In this document: in pieces, positions 1 to 63,356 of the stretch
Layout: every line of letters starts with the position of its first letter
How positions within the stretch are numbered: the stretch's first letter is position 1
Notes under the pieces: generated by a model
Databases searched by the model: none
What the model was told of the DNA's origin: nothing
The model's input: the letters and a program-made list of their open reading frames with translations, nothing else
Assembly (NCBI GenBank): GCA_965263035.1
Contig: OZ253580.1
Coordinates: forward strand, 4,448,001-4,512,000
Length of the DNA: 64,000 bases
Source: Acidobacteriota bacterium
GTDB taxonomy: Bacteria > Acidobacteriota > UBA6911 > RPQK01 > JAJDTT01
Direction of reading: 5' to 3'
Made by a program: the position numbers and the translations under genes

Positions 1-924
1 CAGGCTGGGCTCGGTGGACTCGTCCGTGCCGGTCACCGGGACGAAGGAGACGGGCCGCCAGAGCCCGTTGGTCCTTTGCCAGCGCAGGACGCCGGATCCG
101 CGGGGACCCAGCGGTTCCGGGCTGCCCGTACCGTCCACCTTGGAGGCGTGCATCCCGACCAGCAGGTCCTCACCGTCGGCGATGGCGTTGGTGAGGCCGC
201 CGTTGCTGATGTTCCAGCCGGACACGAGCTCGGATGGGGAGACTCGCTCTTCACCGGTCACCCGGAATTGGTCGCCGTCGTAGCTGAACTGGAAGACCTC
301 CATGATCTGGTAACGCTCGGCATCCTCGTACATGCCTCCCCCATGGGCGCTCTTGGGGTCGCCCGGCCGCCGAGCCAAACCGGTGTCGATCCCGAACCCG
401 GTTCCGGCGTGGGGGTGGGGCGAACCGTCCGGGTTCTTTGCCCCCAGGGGGATGAATCCGCCCCGCATGGGGTACTTGACCATGATGGCGGTCTGGTGGG
501 GCGGATTGGAGTTGGGATTGGCCTCCTCGTGGTTTCGGGTCACGGGTACGGCAGGCGCTGAAGGAGGGAGATTGATGTCGTCGAAAAGGACCACGTCGTT
601 GCCCACCTCGTAGTCGTCGCCGCTACGGGCCGGCGCCATGACGCCGTTGCGGATCCGGATGTTGACGAAGGCGGCGGCCATGCGAGGAGCCACCTGGAAG
701 GGAAAGATGAGGCCATAGCGCCAGCTCTTGCCCGGCGGAACGTCGGCGGGGGTGGTCAGATCCGCTTCCCCGCGAGTCACGCTCAGGATCCCGTGGCTCG
801 GGCCGCTGGATGACGGGAGGCTCTCCTCTCCGGGCGAGCAGCCGCCGATGGTTCCCAGCGAAGCGCCTCCCAGGAGCAGGGTCAATCTCTTCTGAAAATC
901 TCGGCGGTGAATTCGAGAGTTCAT
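1..924 (-). CDS. Tat-exported putative lipoprotein, hypothetical (3' end runs off the window)
   Basis: Manual translation from ATG 924: MNSRIHRRDFQKRLTLLLGGASLGTIGGC..., open to base 1; twin-Arg RRDF motif, hydrophobic stretch, Cys lipobox-like site. Absent from the ORF track because there is no stop in the window. Confidence 0.75.
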   Translation of the reverse strand, partial: MNSRIHRRDFQKRLTLLLGGASLGTIGGCSPGEESLPSSSGPSHGILSVTRGEADLTTPADVPPGKSWRYGLIFPFQVAPRMAAAFVNIRIRNGVMAPARSGDDYEVGNDVVLFDDINLPPSAPAVPVTRNHEEANPNSNPPHQTAIMVKYPMRGGFIPLGAKNPDGSPHPHAGTGFGIDTGLARRPGDPKSAHGGGMYEDAERYQIMEVFQFSYDGDQFRVTGEERVSPSELVSGWNISNGGLTNAIADGEDLLVGMHASKVDGTGSPEPLGPRGSGVLRWQRTNGLWRPVSFVPVTGTDESTEPSL

Positions 925-1116
925 GGGGTTCCTCCGTCCCAGATCTTGGGTTTTGCCACCCAGTCTACTACGCTGCCGACACGCTCCGCCACGGTCCCCG
1001 ACAGGTCCTCGCGATGGGCCGGCGGCAGCTCGGCCGGAGCCGGCCGGTCACCGGAGTCGAGGATGGGATCGCGAACGACATGCTTGGTTGTTAAGCTAAA
1101 CCAAAGACAACAGAAA

Positions 1117-4100
1117 TTGAAAAAACGGCCCGAGGTCGGTCTACTCGTCGCAATCGTCTGCCTCGCCGCAATCAGTGCTCCCGTCGCCGCGCAGCAGCAG
1201 TTCGGCGGTCTCCGTGTCCTCGTCACCGACCAGACCGGTAGCGTCATCCCCGGCGCCGAAGTCGAGTTCGGCGGCAAGGTGTTGATCCGGCCGGTCTTTG
1301 GGGTCTCCGACGATCACGGATTGGTGATCAGGAACAGCCTTCCACCCGGAAACTACACGGTAACCGTCCGATTCCCGGGGTTCCAGACTGCAGTGAATGA
1401 AGAAGTCGTCGTCCAGGCGGGACGGATTTTTTCGGTTGAGATAGCTCTCAAGGTCGGTCAACTCGACAGTACGATCGTCGTCGAGGCAGGCCAAGCGGCG
1501 ATCGATACGTTCAAGAGCGAGTCCGCGGCGACGTATGCCGGGCAAGGGATAACGGACGCCCCCGGCGGTCGAGACTTCAGCGACTACGCGCGCTTTACGC
1601 CGAGCGTCAACATCGAAGCCCAGGCGGGCAACGTGACCTACAGGGGACAGAGTGTCCGTGGCATCTCCGTCGACGGGTCCTCCGGCGCGGAGAACGTCTT
1701 CTACATCGACGGTGTCGATACCACGAGCATGTACAACGGGTTGAACAACCAGAATCTACGGGTCGAAACGGTGCAGGAGTTCCAGTTGAAGACGGCCGGG
1801 TACGAGGCCGAATTCGGCGGCGCCATGGGGGGCGTGCTCAGCATCCGGACCAAGAGCGGATCGAACGACTTTCACGGCAGCGTTCTGTGGTACGGGAGTG
1901 GAAGCGCCTTGGCGGGTGCGCCGAGCAAGCGTCTGCGCCTGGACCCGGCCCAGTCCGCCGACGTGGCCGAATACGTGTTCGACGCCGAAGACGATGAGGC
2001 GATCAACGAATTCGGCTTCACCTTGGGGGGGCCGATCTGGCGCGACCGCATCTGGTTCTTCGGGGCGCTCCTGCCGCAAATCCGAAACCGGACGCGCTCC
2101 GTCACCTTCACATCCGGGGAAACGGGCGATTTCAGACGCCAGGACCGGTTGCGCAGCACGACCGCCAAGATCGACTTCCAGCCTGCGGATAAAGTGAGAT
2201 TCATGACCTCGTACGTTTCGGACCGGTCGCGATGGAAGGGTGGATTGCCCGATCGCGACGGTACCTCCAACCCGAATTACGAGTGGGCGGAAGAAGGGTT
2301 CGAACATCCCGGCTACACGGTGACGGGAGCCCTGACCGTCACCCCGTCTCCGGTTTCGATCGTGGACGCCCGTTGGGGATTGAACGCCATCCAGACCGAA
2401 CAACTGCTGGGGCCGAACCAGGTCCGTCACCGGTTCCTCCAAACGCCGGGAGTGATCGGATATTCGCCGGACGACCCCCTGTATCGGCCACGCGACTTCT
2501 CCTCGATCGGACACTCGGCAAGCTACAATACCTCCCAGGATTTCCAGAAAAAGAGCACCATATCAGTCCGTGGTGAAAGTCCCGCGAGCACCGAGACCGG
2601 TCCTGCGCCCGCCGGACAAGGCGCGATGAGGGAGCATACCGGGAGTATGAGACCGAGTCGCAACGCAGTCCGCGCACGATGCAGGGAAGGTCGAATGCCG
2701 TGACGACTTTTGCCACGGGCTGATATCTCTGAGTGGGAGTTATCTGGCCACCCTGGCAGGCCAGCAGCATGAGGTGCGCGTCGGCTGGCAGTTCAATGGG
2801 CTCGCCCACGACGTCAACGACGCCTACAAGTTCGACTACATCCTGTACAACTACACCCGCCCCTACAACACCGTGGACGGGAACGTCCGGACCAGCACCT
2901 GCACGGGTCCGGACGGCGTCCGTTACGATCCTTGCGGTTATTACGAGCTGCGCACGCCGTTCGGCGTCGTGGCGAACGTCGTTACGCACCGCCATGCCCT
3001 TTTCTTCCAGGATGCCTGGACCATCAACGGTTCGCTCACCCTGAACCTCGGACTTCGCTTCGAGCACGAAGAGATCCCCTCCTTCAGCGATCTTCCGGAG
3101 TTTTCCGGAACGGTCTTCAAGTGGGGCTTCCTGGACAAGGCCGCGCCTCGTCTGGGCTTTGCCTATGACCCACTCGGTAACGCGAAGGTCAAGCTCTTCG
3201 GTAGTTGGGCCCGGTTCTACGACGCCATGAAACTCGAGATGGCCAACGGATCGTTCGGCGGGTTCAAATGGTTGAGCCATTACTACCTGATGGACGACAC
3301 CACGCTCGATTGGACCCGAATCGGAGGGCTGTCGGGACAAGGGGAATATCCTGGAACTTTCGTCGAGACCAGGAACTGGCGACTCCCGTCATTCGAGGAC
3401 CTGGACCCCGATCTGAAACCCATGCGGATGACGGGAGTCGTGGCCGGGGTCGAGTACGAGGCCGCGACGGACTATGTGGTTTCGGTCCGGTACACGCGAA
3501 AGAATCTGGATGAGGCGATCGAGGACGTCGGCCGGCAGACACCGGCGGGTGAGGCCTACTACATCACCAACCCGGGGCGCGGCCTTTCCGTCGACCGTTT
3601 CCTGGAAGCGGGACTGCCGGTTACCCCCCATCCCAAGCGAACCTACAACGCGGCCGAATTCCGCTTACGGAAATCCATCCGAGACCATTGGTTCGCGGAT
3701 GTCGCGTATGTGTATTCCCGGCTTTACGGCCTCTATTCAGGCTTGGGAAGCTCCGACGAGAACGGACGCCTCAGTCCGAACGTCGACCGCGATTTCGATC
3801 TCTGGTTCCTCAACTACGACTCCGCCGGCAACCTGATCGATGGACCGCTGGGCACCGACAGAACGCACCAGCTCAAGGTCAATTGGATGGTCCTCACTCC
3901 GTGGGACATGGCTGTGAGCGGTTTCTTCCGCGCCATGAGCGGAACGCCCGTCACCCGGACCGTCGATCTGGAACACGTGGACGTCATGGTGAACAACCGC
4001 GGCAGCGACGGACGAAACCCGTTCTGGACTCAGACGGACCTCTCACTGGTCCAGCGCTTCTACCCTTTCCCGGATGAAACCAGATCGTTCGAGATCAACT

Positions 4101-4333
4101 TCAACGTCATCAACCTCTTCAACCAGAAGACGGGCTTGCGGACATTCCGAAGCCTGTACCGCCAGTCCCTTCCCTTGTGGCAACCCGGCGATCCCGTCTC
4201 GCAAGTCCTGAACGGCTACGACTATCGCGCCATAGCCGCCTCCCAGGGCGCGACCCAGGATCCTCGCTTCCTGCAGCCGGACCGGTTCCTGGATCCAGTT
4301 GCGGCACGCTTCGGAGTTCGTTTCGTCTTCTGA
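1117..4333 (+). pseudogene. Oar-like TonB-dependent receptor with N-terminal carboxypeptidase-regulatory-like domain, frameshifted by a family A insertion
   Basis: ORFs 907..2703 and 2774..4333 are two halves: signal peptide from TTG 1117, plug motifs (ENVFYIDGVD, EFGGAMGGVLSIRTKSG), barrel ending RFVF. Removing 163 bp restores ...QKKST-I-SLSGSYLATLAGQQHEVRVGW... Confidence 0.9.
2563..2723 (+). mobile_element. Family A ERIC-like palindromic miniature element, copy A1 (161 bp, TA duplication)
   Basis: Terminal inverted repeats TCAGTCCGTGGTGAAAGTC / GACTTTTGCCACGGGCTGA, TA on both sides (2561-62, 2724-25), four other full copies in the window. Confidence 0.92.
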
Positions 4334-4337
4334 CCTG

Positions 4338-4498
4338 GGAGCCTGCGCGGCAGAAATTGATCTACTGCGAAAGCGGTAGAATCGGTCCATATTTCCCCGA
4401 TTTCTCGGCGAATAGAACAACTATGCACCTCCAAATCGAGAAAATCTGGCCTCGATTCCCCTCTTTCTCGCTACGATCATTCTTACCGCGCAGACTCT
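4338..4498. mobile_element. Family B palindromic miniature element, copy B1 (161 bp)
   Basis: Ends GGAGCCTGCGCGGCAGAAATTGATC / GATCATTCTTACCGCGCAGACTCT; near-identical to 11038-11198 and 51038-51198. Confidence 0.92.
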
Positions 4499-4563
4499 TA
4501 GTGTGTCCTCCGGTGTGAAATGCGGGCTGGAATGAGCAATTTTGGACGGAGCATGAAGGTCGC

Positions 4564-4710
4564 ATGACTTGTCCGCGCTGCCGCACCAAGATGACGGTCG
4601 CCGCCCATCGGCCTCACAAGCAAGAGAAGTGGCGCTGCCCCAAGTGCGGCAAGGTGCGGATGAAACCGGCCAGCTACCGCCGATCCAAGTACGGCAAACG
4701 AGAGGCCTGA
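4564..4710 (+). CDS. Small basic Zn-ribbon protein (48 aa)
   Basis: MTCPRCRTKMTVAAHRPHKQEKWRCPKCGKVRMKPASYRRSKYGKREA*; two CxxC knuckles; below the ORF-track length cutoff. Confidence 0.7.
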   Translation: MTCPRCRTKMTVAAHRPHKQEKWRCPKCGKVRMKPASYRRSKYGKREA

Positions 4711-4793
4711 GCGCCGGACGGCAGGCAAAAAAGCGGGTTCAGGCCCGTGGTCCATCGCGTCCGGCCGCCGAGGGCCTTGATCCGCTCCGCCCG

Positions 4794-6284
4794 CTATTTA
4801 ACTCCGGCGGCCAGCCACCGGATCGGTCGGGCGCAGATCAGGAACAGGGCCCCGGCCACGATCGAGGTGACGGCGACGCTGAAAAACAGCTCTTCAGCGG
4901 TCATGGTCTCGAGTCGGCCGGACATGAGCCCGGCGATGAGATTCCCCAGGGCGGCTCCCATGAACCAGGTTCCCATCATCTGCCCCACGAGACGCGTCGG
5001 CGAGAGCTTGGTGATGCTGCTCAACCCGACCGGGCTGAGGCAGAGTTCCCCCACGGTGTGAAAAAAGTAGGTCGTCACCAGCCACACGGGGCTCACCTTG
5101 CCCGCCGCGATGAATTGGGAGCCCCAGGCCATGACGAAAAAACCCGCTCCGAGCAGTACGAGCGCGAAGGCGAACTTGACTCCAAGCGACGGGTTCCTCG
5201 ACCCGAGACCGACCCACAGCATTCCCATCAAGGGCGCCAACAGGACGATGAACAGGGGATTGACCTGCTGCAGCCAACCGGCGGGAAACTCCCAGGAGAG
5301 GATCACCAGGTCGGTGTGTTCCTTGGCGAAGAGATTCATGCTGGATCCGGCCTGCTCGAAGCCGGACCAGAACAGCGCGGCTCCGATGAAGAGGACGAAG
5401 ATGAGGCCTACCCTCCGCCTCTCCAGGCTGTCTCTGCAGGCGAACAGGATGACGTAGCTGAAATAGAGGACGGCCAAGACCGAAATCGAAAGCGAGACGG
5501 TTCGGGCCACGGCCTCGACGGTGAGCGTCAGGAGCCCGGCCGAGGTCAGAGCGGCGAGAGCCAGTGCCGCGGCAGCCACCACTCCCAGACCCCTCAGGAA
5601 CTGGCCGCGAGACCGGGCCTGCGCCTGGAGACTGGACGCATCCCCCTTGAGTTCACCGGCCCCGTCCAGATGCCGCCGTCCCAGCACGTACTGCAGCACG
5701 GCGAAGGTCATGCCCACGCCGGCGGCGCCGAAACCCAGATGCCAATCCACCTTCTCGCCCAGGAACGAGCAGATCCCCGGCCCCAGGAAGGCTCCGACGT
5801 TGATTCCCATGTAGAAAATGGTGAAACCGGCGTCCCGCCGAGCGTCGTTTCCCGTATAGAGGTCTCCGACGATGGCGCTGACGTTGGGTTTCAACAGACC
5901 GGTGCCCAGGGCCACCAGGGCCAACCCCACGTAGAACGTGACCTCGGCCGGAATCGCCAGCGCATAGTGGCCGGCGGCGATGATGATGCCTCCCACCAGG
6001 ACGGCGCGGCGCTGGCCGATGAGCCGGTCCGCCACCCATCCTCCGGGGAGAGCCAGCGCGTAGACTCCGAAGGTATACAGACCGTAGATCGCGCCCGCCT
6101 CGGCCTTGCCCATGCCCATCCCTCCCCGGGCGCTGTCGATCATGAACAGGACCAGGAGGGCCCTCATTCCGTAGTAGCTGAAACGCTCCCACATCTCGGT
6201 GAAGAAGAGGGTCGAGAGCCCTCGGGGATGACCGAAAAAAGTCTGCGGCCGGCGATCGCCGCCGGGTGTCTGCGATGGGTCCAT
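4794..6284 (-). CDS. POT/PTR family proton-dependent oligopeptide transporter (DtpT-like)
   Basis: FFGHPRGL, EMWERFSYYGMR, GTGLLKPN and GELCLSPVGLS motifs; start uncertain (6284-6302). Confidence 0.93.
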   Translation of the reverse strand: MDPSQTPGGDRRPQTFFGHPRGLSTLFFTEMWERFSYYGMRALLVLFMIDSARGGMGMGKAEAGAIYGLYTFGVYALALPGGWVADRLIGQRRAVLVGGIIIAAGHYALAIPAEVTFYVGLALVALGTGLLKPNVSAIVGDLYTGNDARRDAGFTIFYMGINVGAFLGPGICSFLGEKVDWHLGFGAAGVGMTFAVLQYVLGRRHLDGAGELKGDASSLQAQARSRGQFLRGLGVVAAAALALAALTSAGLLTLTVEAVARTVSLSISVLAVLYFSYVILFACRDSLERRRVGLIFVLFIGAALFWSGFEQAGSSMNLFAKEHTDLVILSWEFPAGWLQQVNPLFIVLLAPLMGMLWVGLGSRNPSLGVKFAFALVLLGAGFFVMAWGSQFIAAGKVSPVWLVTTYFFHTVGELCLSPVGLSSITKLSPTRLVGQMMGTWFMGAALGNLIAGLMSGRLETMTAEELFFSVAVTSIVAGALFLICARPIRWLAAGVK

Positions 6285-6312
6285 GGAGACCTCCATACTC
6301 ACGTCTGCGGGA

Positions 6313-7272
6313 TCAGCGAACGGCGATGGGATTTCCCGGGGATCCGGTGGCTCCCTTCAGGCGAAGCGGGGAGAAGACGAAGGCGAACTCGTAGACCTTG
6401 TCCCGCGCCAACTCCTCCAGCGTGAGATTTTCCAGGTTGTAGATCCCGTGGCGCACCAGCATCCACTGATGCACCTCGAAGGGCCGGTCCGGATTCTCGT
6501 GCGGGACCACCTCGATGGCCCAGTTGTCGGCTCCGGTCAGGACCGTTTTCCGGCTGCTGAGCCAGCGGGCCGCCTCCATGCCGATTCCCGGCTCACCCGA
6601 GTTGTACAGGTCGTTGTCCCGCATCCACAGCTTCTCGTGTCCGGTGCGGATCAGGACCGCGTCCCCTTCTCGGACTTCCACGCCCTGTTTCTTCAGAGCT
6701 CCCTGCAGGTCGTCTGCGGTGATGACGTATCCCGGCTGCAGTCGGTCCACGCCCTTGAATGAGGCCACGTCGATGAGGACCCCGCGGGTAAAGAAGACGC
6801 CCACGTTCTCTACGCCCAGCTTCGTGAGCCCGTAGGGAGTGGCGAACCGGGACCGCTTGAAACCGTTATAGAAGTAGTCGTCGTCGGCCAGTCGAACTCC
6901 GACATGGCCGAGTCCGTCGAACTGAGTTCCGACCTGACCGATCTCGCCGCTGAACATCTCGTCGAAACCCACGAGCCCGTTCGATCCGGTCGGGTCGCCC
7001 GAAGTGGGAGATCCTGGGATCGTGAGCTTGAAATGCCGCTTGCCCGCCAGCGGCATCCCTTCCTGGTAGACCTGACCCAGCGAGTAGATCTTGCCGGTGC
7101 GGATGAGCCGGCTGGCTTCCAGGACTTTGGCCGGGGTGATCCGGTTGGCGGCGCCGCGTTGATCCGCGGTGCCCCACTCGGAAGGCCACCAGCGGGAGCC
7201 GATGGGTGTCTCCTGGGGCCAGGCAACCGACTGCATGGACCAGCAGAGCGCTATGAACCCGATGAGCCTCAT
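6313..7272 (-). CDS. Secreted cyclase/kynurenine-formamidase family metallohydrolase
   Basis: QVGTQFDGLGH, RGVLID, GATGSPGNPIA motifs; signal peptide MRLIGFIALCW... Confidence 0.88.
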   Translation of the reverse strand: MRLIGFIALCWSMQSVAWPQETPIGSRWWPSEWGTADQRGAANRITPAKVLEASRLIRTGKIYSLGQVYQEGMPLAGKRHFKLTIPGSPTSGDPTGSNGLVGFDEMFSGEIGQVGTQFDGLGHVGVRLADDDYFYNGFKRSRFATPYGLTKLGVENVGVFFTRGVLIDVASFKGVDRLQPGYVITADDLQGALKKQGVEVREGDAVLIRTGHEKLWMRDNDLYNSGEPGIGMEAARWLSSRKTVLTGADNWAIEVVPHENPDRPFEVHQWMLVRHGIYNLENLTLEELARDKVYEFAFVFSPLRLKGATGSPGNPIAVR

Positions 7273-10984: not shown

Positions 10985-11037
10985 TCCTGCGCCTTTCATG
11001 AGAGGCCGCGGCAATCGCCATGAATTCGGGGATTCCA

Positions 11038-11198
11038 GGAGCCTGCGCCGCAGAAATTGATCTACTGCGAAAGCGGTAGAATCGGTCCATATTTCCCCGA
11101 TTTCTCGGCGAATAGAACAACTATGCACCTCAAAATCGAGAAAATCTGGCCTCGATTCCCCACTTTCTCGCTACGATCATTTCTACCGCGCAGACTCC
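11038..11198. mobile_element. Family B miniature element, copy B2 (161 bp)
   Basis: GGAGCCTGCG...CGCAGACTCC followed by TAG; near-identical to B1 and B3. Confidence 0.92.
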
Positions 11199-11226
11199 TA
11201 GCGCTGACGATCCTGAAGGCATGGGC

Positions 11227-16362: not shown

Positions 16363-16522
16363 CAGCCCGTGGTAAAAGCCGCCGCGGCATTCGACCGTCC
16401 TTGCATCGTGCGCGGAATGCGTTGCGACTCGGTCACATACCCCCGGCATACTCCCTCATCGCGCCTTGTCCGGTGGGCGCTGGAACGGTCTCGGTGCTAG
16501 CGGGACTTTCACCACGGACTGT
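16362..16522 (-). mobile_element. Family A element, copy A2 (161 bp, TA duplication)
   Basis: ACAGCCCGTGGTAAAAG...CTTTCACCACGGACTGT, TA at 16360-61 and 16523-24; reverse orientation to A1. Confidence 0.9.
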
Positions 16523-45330: not shown

Positions 45331-45376
45331 ACAGCCCGTGGCAACAGTCGTCACGGCATGCGACCGTCCCTGCATC
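45331..45376 (-). repeat. Family A terminal remnant
   Basis: TA|ACAGCCCGTGGCAACAGTCGTCACGGCATGCGACCGTCCCTGCATC matches the first ~46 nt of A2/A4. Confidence 0.85.
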
Positions 45377-49502: not shown

Positions 49503-51038
49503 ATGTCGACACCCCCCGTGGTCCTTCTGGCCGTCCTGGATGGTTGGGGATGGCGAGACGGTCGGGAAGGGAATGCCATCGCCCAGGCCCGACTCCCCAA
49601 CATGGAGAGTCTCTACTCGCGCTACGCCTGGACCCGCTTGGCGGCCAGTGGCGGACGTGTCGGCCTGCCCCAGGGCCAGATGGGTAACAGCGAGGTCGGC
49701 CATTTGAATCTGGGGGCCGGACGGATTGTCCCGCAGGATCTGACCCGAATCGATCGAGCCATAGAAACAGGGCGGTTCGACGGCAACTCGAGCCTGCGAT
49801 CCGTTATGGAAAGGGCTCGCCACACGGCGCTTCACCTGATCGGGCTGGTTTCGGACGGTGGAGTGCACAGCCACATCCGCCACCTGCTGGCGTTGCTGCG
49901 GCTGGCCCGGAACGAGCATGTCGAGAAGGTGTGGATCCACGCGATCCTGGATGGGAGGGACGCGAGTCCCAGCGGCGGAGTGCAATTTCTGGAACAGTTG
50001 CAGGCAGAAACCAGGAAACTGGGAACGGGAGGATTGGCTTCGGTCGGCGGCCGCTACTACGCCATGGATCGCGACAACCGTTGGGACCGGGTGGAAAAGG
50101 CCTACCGATGTATGGTCGAGGGTCGAGGAGGACGAGGCTGGCGGAATCCGATTCAGGGTGTGGAGGAGTCGTATCGAAACGGGGTCTACGATGAGTTCGT
50201 GGACCCATTTTCGGTTGTGGATTCACTCGGCCGTCCGATGGGCTCGATCGATCCCGATCATGCGGCCATTTTCTTCAACTTCCGTGCCGACCGGGCTCGC
50301 CAACTCACACACTCACTGACGGGAGTCGATTTCCGGGCCTTTCCCCGGAGCCGGGAGCCCATGGCTCACTTTCTCACGATGACCCAGTATCGGCTCGACT
50401 GGGCGCTGCCGGCGGCCTTCCGTTACGTTCCCGTTCAGCACACGCTGGCCCAGCTCTTGAGTTCCCACGGCGTTTCCAATCTGCGGCTGGCGGAGACGGA
50501 AAAATACGCTCACGTCACCTATTTCTTCAACGGGGGGGCAGAGGACCCTCCGGCAGGCGAGACGAGGGTTCTGATTCCGTCTCCGAAGGTGGCCACGTAC
50601 GATCTCCAACCCTGGATGAGCGCCGCCGAGATCACGAATCGCTTGCTTTACGAGTTGGAGCGCGGCGTCTTTCCGGCCATGGTGGTCAATTTTGCCAACG
50701 CCGACATGGTGGGACACACGGGAGACCTGGCGGCCACCGTCCAGGCGGTAGAGGCGGTGGACTCCTGCCTTGGCCGAATCTACCGAAAGATCCGGAAAAC
50801 CGGGGGCGTCATGGCGGTCACGGCAGACCATGGGAATGCCGAGTTGATGGTGGATGCGAAGACAGGTCAGCCCCATACGGCTCACACCAGTCACCCGGTG
50901 CCGTTCATTCTGGTCGATCCTCAAAACCGGCCAGCGTTGAGGTCGGGAGGAGCTCTGGAGGATGTGGCCCCCACGCTGCTGCAATATCTGGACTTGCCGC
51001 AGCCGGAGGAAATGACCGGCCGATCCCTGTTGATCTAG
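49503..51038 (+). CDS. gpmI: 2,3-BPG-independent phosphoglycerate mutase
   Basis: LDGWG, MGNSEVGH, GRYYAMDRD, ETEKYAHVT, DMVGHTG, TADHGNAE. Confidence 0.98.
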   Translation: MSTPPVVLLAVLDGWGWRDGREGNAIAQARLPNMESLYSRYAWTRLAASGGRVGLPQGQMGNSEVGHLNLGAGRIVPQDLTRIDRAIETGRFDGNSSLRSVMERARHTALHLIGLVSDGGVHSHIRHLLALLRLARNEHVEKVWIHAILDGRDASPSGGVQFLEQLQAETRKLGTGGLASVGGRYYAMDRDNRWDRVEKAYRCMVEGRGGRGWRNPIQGVEESYRNGVYDEFVDPFSVVDSLGRPMGSIDPDHAAIFFNFRADRARQLTHSLTGVDFRAFPRSREPMAHFLTMTQYRLDWALPAAFRYVPVQHTLAQLLSSHGVSNLRLAETEKYAHVTYFFNGGAEDPPAGETRVLIPSPKVATYDLQPWMSAAEITNRLLYELERGVFPAMVVNFANADMVGHTGDLAATVQAVEAVDSCLGRIYRKIRKTGGVMAVTADHGNAELMVDAKTGQPHTAHTSHPVPFILVDPQNRPALRSGGALEDVAPTLLQYLDLPQPEEMTGRSLLI

Positions 51039-51198
51039 GAGCCTGCGCCGCAGAAATTGAGCTACTGCGAAAGCGGTAGAATCGGTCCATATTTCCCCGA
51101 TTTCTCGGCGAATAGAACAACTATGCACCTCCAAATCGAGAAAATCCGGCCTCGATTCCCCACTTTCTCGCTACGATCATTGCTACCGCGCAGACTCC
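51038..51198. mobile_element. Family B element, copy B3 (161 bp)
   Basis: CTA|GGAGCCTGCG...CGCAGACTCC; its first base completes the gpmI TAG. Confidence 0.92.
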
Positions 51199-51217
51199 TG
51201 GCCCAGCAGCATTGCCC

Positions 51218-52312: not shown

Positions 52313-52338
52313 GGATCTGAACTCCAGGTCAGGGGCTT

Positions 52339-52436
52339 GGAGTCTGCGCGGTAGAAATGATCGTAGCGAGAAAGCGGGGAAATATGGACCGATTCTACCG
52401 CTTTCGCAGTAGATCAATTTCTGCCGCGCAGGCTCC
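52339..52436. mobile_element. Family B element, copy B4: inverted, 63-bp internal deletion (98 bp)
   Basis: Both ends intact in reverse orientation; the deletion falls between the internal direct repeats TTCCCCnnTTTCTCG. Confidence 0.88.
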
Positions 52437-52472
52437 TTGGTCGGCTCAAGTGATCTGGATGGGGCGAGTCTC

Positions 52473-54357: not shown

Positions 54358-54518
54358 CAGTCCGTGGCAAAAGTCCCGCGTAGCACCGAAACCGGGGCTG
54401 CGCCCGCCGGACAAGGCGCGTAGAGGGAGCATACCGGGAGTATGCGACCGAGACGCAACGCAGTCCGCGCACGATGCAGACCCGGTCGAATGCCGTGACG
54501 ACTTTTTCCACTGGCTGG
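54357..54518 (+). mobile_element. Family A element, copy A3 (162 bp, TA duplication)
   Basis: TA|GCAGTCCGTGGCAAAAGTC...GACTTTTTCCACTGGCTGG|TA. Confidence 0.9.
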
Positions 54519-55392: not shown

Positions 55393-55554
55393 GCGGACCG
55401 TGGTAAAAGTCGTCACGGCATTCGACCGTCCCTGCATCGTGCGCGGACTGCGTTGCTATCGGCTCGCATACTCCCGGTATGCTCCCTCCGTTGCGCCTGG
55501 TCCGGCGGGCGCAGGAACGGTTTCGGTGCTCGCGGGACTTTCGCCACGGACTGC
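55393..55554 (-). mobile_element. Family A element, copy A4 (162 bp, eroded flanks)
   Basis: Reverse-oriented close match to A5; lies between rmlA and rmlB. Confidence 0.88.
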
Positions 55555-63194: not shown

Positions 63195-63356
63195 TCAGTC
63201 CGTGGTGAAAGTCCCGCGAGCACCGAGACCGTTCCTGCGCCCGCCGGACCAGGCGCAACGGAGGGAGCAGACCGGGAGTATGTGAGCCGATAGCAACGCA
63301 GTCCGCGCACGATGCGGGGACGGTCGAATGCCGCGACGACTTTTGCCACGGGCTGA
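63195..63356 (+). mobile_element. Family A element, copy A5 (162 bp, TA duplication)
   Basis: TA|TCAGTCCGTGGTGAAAGTC...GACTTTTGCCACGGGCTGA|TA in the divergent tmk/yggS intergenic region. Confidence 0.92.

Follow-up and report, generated by a model that had tools for sequence, protein, structure and literature searches.

Why does a gene for a large, well-conserved receptor appear in one Acidobacteriota genome as two adjacent partial reading frames? The gene lies at 1117-4333 on the forward strand of a 64-kb stretch of DNA (G000:C1:4448001-4512000; hereafter the window, within which positions are counted unless a genome coordinate is given) of G000, an uncultured Acidobacteriota metagenome-assembled genome (MAG) consisting of a single contig of 6.198 Mb with a G+C content of 62%. 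Its 1,017 codons, of the TonB-dependent-receptor type, are broken after codon 482 by a single insert, a copy (A1) of a MITE (miniature inverted-repeat transposable element). The explanation that we consider very probable is a recent and ordinary insertional knock-out by this 159-bp hairpin MITE, a loss that was tolerated, and not a regulated switch. Our comparisons drew on a genus set of nine genomes, G000 included (the congeners being G001-G008), on six genomes of the sister genus and on a wider orthologue set of 37 public loci from MAGs labelled Acidobacteriota, Bryobacterales, Terriglobia or Candidatus Versatilivorator, 36 of which span the insertion site. The window is collinear with G007, at ~90-95% identity, and with G002 over 64 kb.

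A single insert separates the two halves of an otherwise intact receptor gene

The upstream frame opens with TTG at 1117, runs through 482 native codons to 2562 and continues through 46 foreign residues to a TGA at 2701-2703. The downstream frame, offset by +1, opens at 2651, just after a TGA at 2648-2650, and stops at 4331-4333, its native part (2726-4330) comprising 535 codons. The net insert of 163 bp consists of a 159-bp element and a 4-bp duplication and accounts for the +1 frameshift. Splicing the two halves in silico gave 3,054 nt with the terminal stop as the sole stop codon, in agreement with a first-pass annotation of this DNA, which had described a receptor of about 1017 aa in 482+535 codons with no other stop or frameshift and whose figures for the net insert, the shift, the premature stop and the start of the downstream open frame all hold. 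The spliced gene aligned with zero indels to the orthologues of G007 and G004, and with one in-frame 6-nt difference to that of G002.

Pfam matches fall on both sides of the break. The N-terminal half matched PF13620 (CarboxypepD_reg; 49.5 bits) and PF25183 (51.4 bits), both exceeding their cut-offs, and carried a Plug domain, PF07715, at residues 140-240 (28.2 bits against a cut-off of 23.9). The C-terminal half matched PF00593, the TonB-dependent receptor barrel, at 55.8 bits against a cut-off of 27 and PF25183 at 70.5 against 30, and shares 92-97% amino-acid identity with the congener orthologues. The Plug domain, together with a C-terminal barrel that ends in an aromatic residue, marks the predicted product as one of the TonB-dependent-receptor type. 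FepA (1fep) and the siderophore receptor 5fr8 show the same order of Plug, C-terminal beta-barrel and terminal aromatic residue; the G000 receptor differs from them in its length of ~1,017 residues, its extra N-terminal CarboxypepD_reg domain and its long PF25183 barrel. Its plug region (residues 117-273) weakly matches these two solved receptors (E ~2e-4), and the C-terminal half gave no sequence match to solved structures. Judged by eye, the N terminus has a basic start and a hydrophobic stretch leading to ...APVAA|QQQ, and these features are kept in the orthologues. An AlphaFold2 model of the intact G007 orthologue, with 28 close orthologues as input, reached a mean pLDDT of only 38.9 and was unusable. 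Scans of 900-4700 detected nothing resembling a promoter; the two terminator-like sites that they returned both lie outside the MITE.

The split is present in contigs of public runs. Those of X1, X5 and X7, from three studies, cross both borders between unique gene sequence and the element, reaching 2588 on the left and beginning at 2697 or 2709 on the right, with 0 mismatches except for one other letter in the right-hand piece of X7. X1 may be the source sample, in which case two independent studies would remain. The first-pass annotation had named an assembly artefact as one way in which its account could fail, and these junction contigs speak against it.

The inserted element belongs to a high-copy MITE family

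A BLAST search with the element against G000 gave 191 hits, of which 161 were full-length (at least 150 nt aligned), with a median identity to A1 of 92.6%, a degree of repetition well above what chance would give. The family cores measure 158-161 bp and hold no transposase. Their terminal inverted repeats (TIRs) are 18-19 nt long, copies beginning CAGTCCGTGGTGAAAGTC and ending GACTTTTGCCACGGGCTG (the ends being given as CAGTCCGTGGTGAAAGTC / CAGCCCGTGGCAAAAGTC). Among the 145 copies with clean CAG...CTG ends, a 4-bp direct repeat was exact in 73 and a 5-bp repeat fitted none (0/145). Since the family duplication is 4 bp, that of A1 is ATAT and the element proper spans 2564-2722; the first-pass annotation was thus correct about the net 163 bp and mistaken in proposing a 2-bp TA duplication. 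Exact duplications followed the pattern NTAN in 53 of the 73 copies (TTAA 23, ATAT 7, CTAG 7), and tetramers with a central TA make up only 1.65% of the genome. Duplication of 4 bp at tetramers that are centred on TA and often palindromic (in this family TTAA, CTAG, ATAT) is a feature in common with IS1182/IS5-type insertion sequences and their miniature derivatives; the targets of the IS5 group are 4-bp YTAR.

A1 folds over its whole length into a single hairpin (-89.8 kcal/mol with z -7.1 as RNA, z -3.0 as DNA), and Rfam scans at gathering and E-value thresholds assigned the element to no family, intron families included. The 159-nt consensus has stops in all three frames of its forward strand and is open in all three frames of its reverse strand, so the orientation of a copy decides whether a genic insertion truncates the protein. 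Being short, bounded by TIRs and a duplication, dispersed in many copies and furnished with ends in common with an autonomous element, A1 has the characteristics of a non-coding MITE and can be classed as one on these grounds.

The family was found in all eight other genomes of the genus and in none of the six sister-genus genomes. Phylum-wide, 18 of 301 genomes had matches, spread over 11 of 185 genera, a tally that includes the unpublished genome G016, whose match covers only 46 nt. Full-length relatives at 72-79% identity are patchily distributed in the phylum, occurring in six other families and neither in the sister genus nor in most of the order. Such patchy relatives of the 159-nt element point either to horizontal spread or to constraint on the internal sequence. 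A selected folded core was considered and set aside: in G000 conservation is higher at the termini (0.965) than in the centre (0.884), and double changes come mainly from one subfamily. A literature search at record level found no description of this MITE family. Its host is rich in insertion sequences generally, G000 having 70 DDE_Tnp_1 matches and 29 matches to the IS1182 model, with several families in many near-identical copies.

A review (PMC10969869) reports MITEs that inactivate genes in many prokaryotes, and its examples (MITEaba12 in hns of Acinetobacter, MITEs in the mcy genes of Anabaena and Correia elements in Neisseria genes) resemble A1 in being short, non-coding elements with TIRs and a duplication that are mobilised in trans and break a coding sequence. 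In those cases strain- or species-specific presence shows mobility, as it does for the A1 family; A1 differs from them in element family, host phylum and target gene.

The probable source of transposase is no longer found intact in G000

A 1,477-bp insertion sequence in G007 and G005 has the ends CAGCCCGTGGCAAAAGTCC and is flanked by the 4-bp duplications CTAG and CTAC. The MITE shares with it solely the terminal 18-19 nt, together with the size of the duplication. The transposase of this partner element, 451 aa with an N-terminal DUF772, is best described by the IS1182 model; because its scores lie under the cut-off for both IS1182 (NF033551; 178.8 bits against 270) and IS5 (84.6 against 140), we label it IS1182/IS5-like, a curated member of neither family. 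Its nearest plasmid-borne relatives are ~50% identical. The transposase gene is in a single frame in G005, G006, G002, G001 and G003, and the G007 copy that we examined has a 1-nt frameshift.

G000 itself holds only internally deleted derivatives of the partner element, three of ~760 bp and one of 1.09 kb. The ~760-bp derivatives (G000:C1:2099107, 2919631 on the reverse strand, and 5669960) have identical flanking sequence and are thus passengers in a larger repeat, not a sign of recent movement. A search for an autonomous copy in G000 through pairs of TIRs 0.5-6 kb apart recovered only the 1.09-kb decayed derivative (151695-152766) and a chance pair. A scan of G000 for partner ends outside the known copies gave fragments only. 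Among its IS1182-family transposase genes, the 10 with the highest scores, seven of them full-length, lacked partner ends within 500 bp. No intact transposase with matching ends was found in G000, which suggests that the family is at present immobile there.

These results bear on whether the insertion could act as a reversible switch, in which precise removal of the MITE by a transposase or by replication slippage, at a useful rate, would turn the receptor back on. Exact removal of 163 bp would indeed give a perfect frame, and the hairpin brings both ATAT copies together, a geometry that, with adjoining direct repeats, favours slippage deletions. However, the internally deleted derivatives leave G000 without a transposase known to fit the ends, the repeats available for slippage are only 4 bp long, and no dedicated mechanism of reversal was found. 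Frequent excision is also made less likely by the age of the family, most copies being old (median, 10 differences from the consensus). The joint of an empty site, 2563/2727, occurred in none of the contigs of four runs, although contigs drop rare variants and its absence there is consequently no proof that such alleles are absent. A switch is very improbable.

The insertion occurred late on the branch of the species

The split might instead have been ancient and shared, and the orthologues allow this to be judged. Orthologues in G007, G006, G003, G002, G004 and G008 lack the insert, as do all 36 of the 37 public loci that span its position; in the orthologues the empty site reads ACN-[GTA/ATA/GTT/CTG...]-TCN. 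In 30 of the 37 public loci a single frame stays open over at least 470 + 530 codons; 28 loci are exactly 1,016-1,017 codons long, and mean column identity over 28 orthologues is 84%. Parsimony, for which G002 and G004 served as outgroups, placed 54 synonymous and 15 non-synonymous codon changes on the G000 branch and 54 and 16 on the branch of the intact G007 gene; roughly three non-synonymous changes for each synonymous change would be expected had the gene been a pseudogene for the whole branch. As a rough bound, this substitution ratio puts the unconstrained share of the G000 branch at no more than 5%. Pairwise dN/dS against G007 was 0.27 for the N-terminal half and 0.08 for the C-terminal half, the raised value for the N-terminal half not being specific to G000. 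The comparison of orthologues and the dN/dS of both halves, which the first-pass annotation had proposed as checks, thus show no old pseudogene shared with relatives and no raised ratio on the G000 branch. With empty sites at every covering locus, a substitution pattern typical of a selected gene and contigs from three studies that enter the element at both ends, neither a mis-assembly nor an ancient shared split retains any appreciable probability.

The element itself also looks young. A1 differs from the consensus at 3 of 159 positions, tied for the fewest among the 161 copies, one difference being a common polymorphism and two being private; the corresponding figure for the median copy is 10. 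For none of the five full-length copies in the window (0/5) do the corresponding stretches of G007 and G002 hold a counterpart at the matching position, and the syntenic 64 kb of G007 contain five copies at other sites. Two intergenic regions were hit in both G000 and G007, at different sites and with differing duplications or orientation, and those hits are therefore independent. As the first-pass annotation had supposed, then, the insertion is recent, arriving late on the species' own branch after purifying selection had acted for nearly the whole of it, and the MITE family was recently active, moving after the species split.

Probable consequences of the insertion and possible reasons for its persistence

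The following course of events would explain these observations. A 159-bp hairpin MITE, moved in trans by a 1.48-kb IS1182/IS5-like element with common ends and a 4-bp duplication, would have inserted at an ATAT site in the conserved gene of an outer-membrane receptor of ~1,017 residues, late on the species' branch and after long purifying selection. It would have added 163 bp with the strand that carries stops in every frame reading along the gene, and because of this orientation translation would end 46 codons into the element. As the 535 downstream codons lack a start with a signal peptide, the allele would be null.

A full-length protein could in principle be rescued at the level of RNA or translation, as the first-pass annotation had speculated, if the insert were removed from the mRNA or if ribosomes shifted by +1 within 2651-2700; the two frames do overlap by 50 nt. 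We find next to nothing to recommend this proposal. The element matches no Rfam family and, with its terminal repeats and target duplication, it is a transposon. In the overlap at 2651-2703, which ends AUG CCG UGA C, we recognise no slippery motif, and its sequence is the plain family consensus, not one evolved at the receptor locus. A frameshifted product would, moreover, hold 54 foreign residues in what a low-confidence model depicts as a barrel strand.

Under the tolerated knock-out, the simplest view is that one among ~30-40 paralogous receptors was lost at little cost. Each congener has 29-40 matches to the N-terminal half, which show, the orthologue aside, ~24-34% identity, so this class of receptor is highly redundant. 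The orthologue has also suffered elsewhere in the genus: that of G003 has a 697-bp deletion, that of G006 has six indels of 1-2 nt in its N-terminal half, possibly assembly errors, that of G005 is reduced to ~73 codons next to a conserved neighbour gene, and in G001 none was found with either half as query. Such a pattern would fit relaxed selection on the gene within the genus, and the loss of function in G000, which we infer from the reading frames, was probably close to neutral.

The same pattern is what makes an adaptive knock-out worth weighing. Here loss of the receptor would itself have been selected, for example because it closed a route of entry to a phage or toxin, the MITE merely delivering the mutation. 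Damage or absence by different routes in four other congeners of the nine genus genomes, set beside 30 of 37 loci intact in the wider clade, is compatible with this idea, as is the fact that, in runs from three studies, it is the insertion allele that the contigs show. However, the protein has no known phage, toxin or receptor function, some of the damage (the G006 indels) may reflect assembly errors, and relaxed selection in a genus with 30-40 paralogues accounts for the pattern equally well; we therefore regard selection for loss as unlikely. Slightly less likely again is a more elaborate form of it, in which the receptor has been lost repeatedly and adaptively across the genus (by the MITE, the 697-bp deletion, a near-total deletion and frameshifts) in response to a harmful agent that enters through it, the MITE allele being a soft loss that is potentially revertible by slippage at the 4-bp repeats.

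Several points weigh against a recent and tolerated knock-out as we have presented it. In four other congeners the orthologue has been damaged or is missing independently, which could reflect selection for loss and not tolerance, and with the gene so highly conserved (84% over the 28 orthologues) it is not self-evident that losing it is entirely neutral. The loss of function is itself deduced from sequence, and rare empty-site alleles would escape detection in contigs. Judged by its two private changes (1.3%), A1 would have inserted somewhat earlier than the substitution ratio implies, the confidence ranges of the two estimates overlapping.

The event is in itself a textbook one, and its value lies in being a clean and well-dated marker. 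It marks the movement of a high-copy MITE family after a species split in an uncultured Acidobacteriota lineage, the transposase source of that family having apparently since been lost from G000. If the tolerated knock-out is correct, a strongly conserved large receptor would be dispensable in at least one species, and the putative null allele would offer a natural starting point for later study of what this class of receptor imports. For annotation the locus carries a warning, since its two adjacent partial genes are one gene.

Other genic copies of the family

In-silico removal of the element left at least 100 open codons on both sides for 29 of the 161 copies, against 62% of random positions, and examination of the nine best restored frames by Pfam and congener comparison revealed only one further true genic case, an in-frame insertion. 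Five candidates for broken genes (tsf-pyrH, nuoJ, a PQQ-dehydrogenase, HlyD and an Eco57I-like methylase) were rejected when the same comparison placed the copies between genes, and three further restored frames were dropped as they had no domain on either side. In a published census ~90% of conserved bacterial MITEs are intergenic (PMC11602168).

The genic in-frame copy, locus L130, lies outside the window at G000:C1:3372613-3372773, antisense within a conserved gene of ~1,041 codons that encodes PD40-like repeats followed by FG-GAP repeats and UnbV_ASPIC, with the MITE in the inter-domain linker. Together the 161-bp core and a TCAG duplication lengthen the open frame by 165 bp (55 codons) with no stop and no shift, bringing it to 1,096 codons; the gene has 1,033-1,041 codons in seven congeners, and the site is empty in G007. 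This linker copy recalls the Rickettsia palindromic elements, which are in-frame MITE insertions (PMC10969869) and resemble this family as palindromic elements of ~150-160 bp found inside genes. In contrast to them, A1 bears stops and shifts the frame, and so destroys its gene instead of extending it.

Other features of the window

The coordinates of the receptor locus and of further MITE copies are collected in Table 1. The second MITE family listed there has elements of ~165-169 bp with the ends GGAGCCTGCGC...GCGCAGACTCC and a CTAG-type target. Its first copy begins directly after the TGA stop of the receptor gene; the sites at 4334 and 51034 are empty in G002, and the latter is also empty in G007.

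Table 1. Positions of the split receptor gene, the inserted element and other MITE copies in the window
Feature	Position	Strand	Basis
N-terminal 482 codons: signal-peptide-like start, CarboxypepD_reg, Plug, beginning of beta-barrel	1117..2562	+	translation, Pfam
Target-site duplication, left copy, ATAT	2560..2563	.	4-bp repeat exact in 73/145 clean-ended copies
MITE copy A1, 159 bp, CAG...CTG ends, 18-19-nt TIRs, forward (stop-bearing) relative to gene	2564..2722	+	161 full-length genome copies
Premature TGA of upstream frame, inside MITE, after 46 foreign residues	2701..2703	+	translation
Target-site duplication, right copy, ATAT	2723..2726	.	family 4-bp direct repeat
C-terminal 535 codons and stop: remainder of beta-barrel, terminus ...RFVF	2726..4333	+	translation, Pfam
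Same-family MITE copy	16363..16521		
Same-family MITE copy	54358..54517		
Same-family MITE copy	55398..55553		
Same-family MITE copy	63196..63355		
Same-family MITE fragment	45332..45376		
Second-family MITE copy	4334..4502		
Second-family MITE copy	11034..11202		
Second-family MITE copy	51034..51202		
Second-family MITE copy, partial	52335..52442		

In the RNA run X16, a contig covering 2344-2578 goes 15 nt into the element, too short a distance to bridge it, and the bins at 2824-3051 are uncovered; we draw nothing from either. The next gene 3' of the receptor (4569-6425) has 618 codons and no Pfam hit. It is contiguous in G000 and G002, and in G007, G005 and G001 it contains ~1.4-1.5 kb of extra sequence after its first ~50-64 codons, which in G007 holds a frame of 465 codons.

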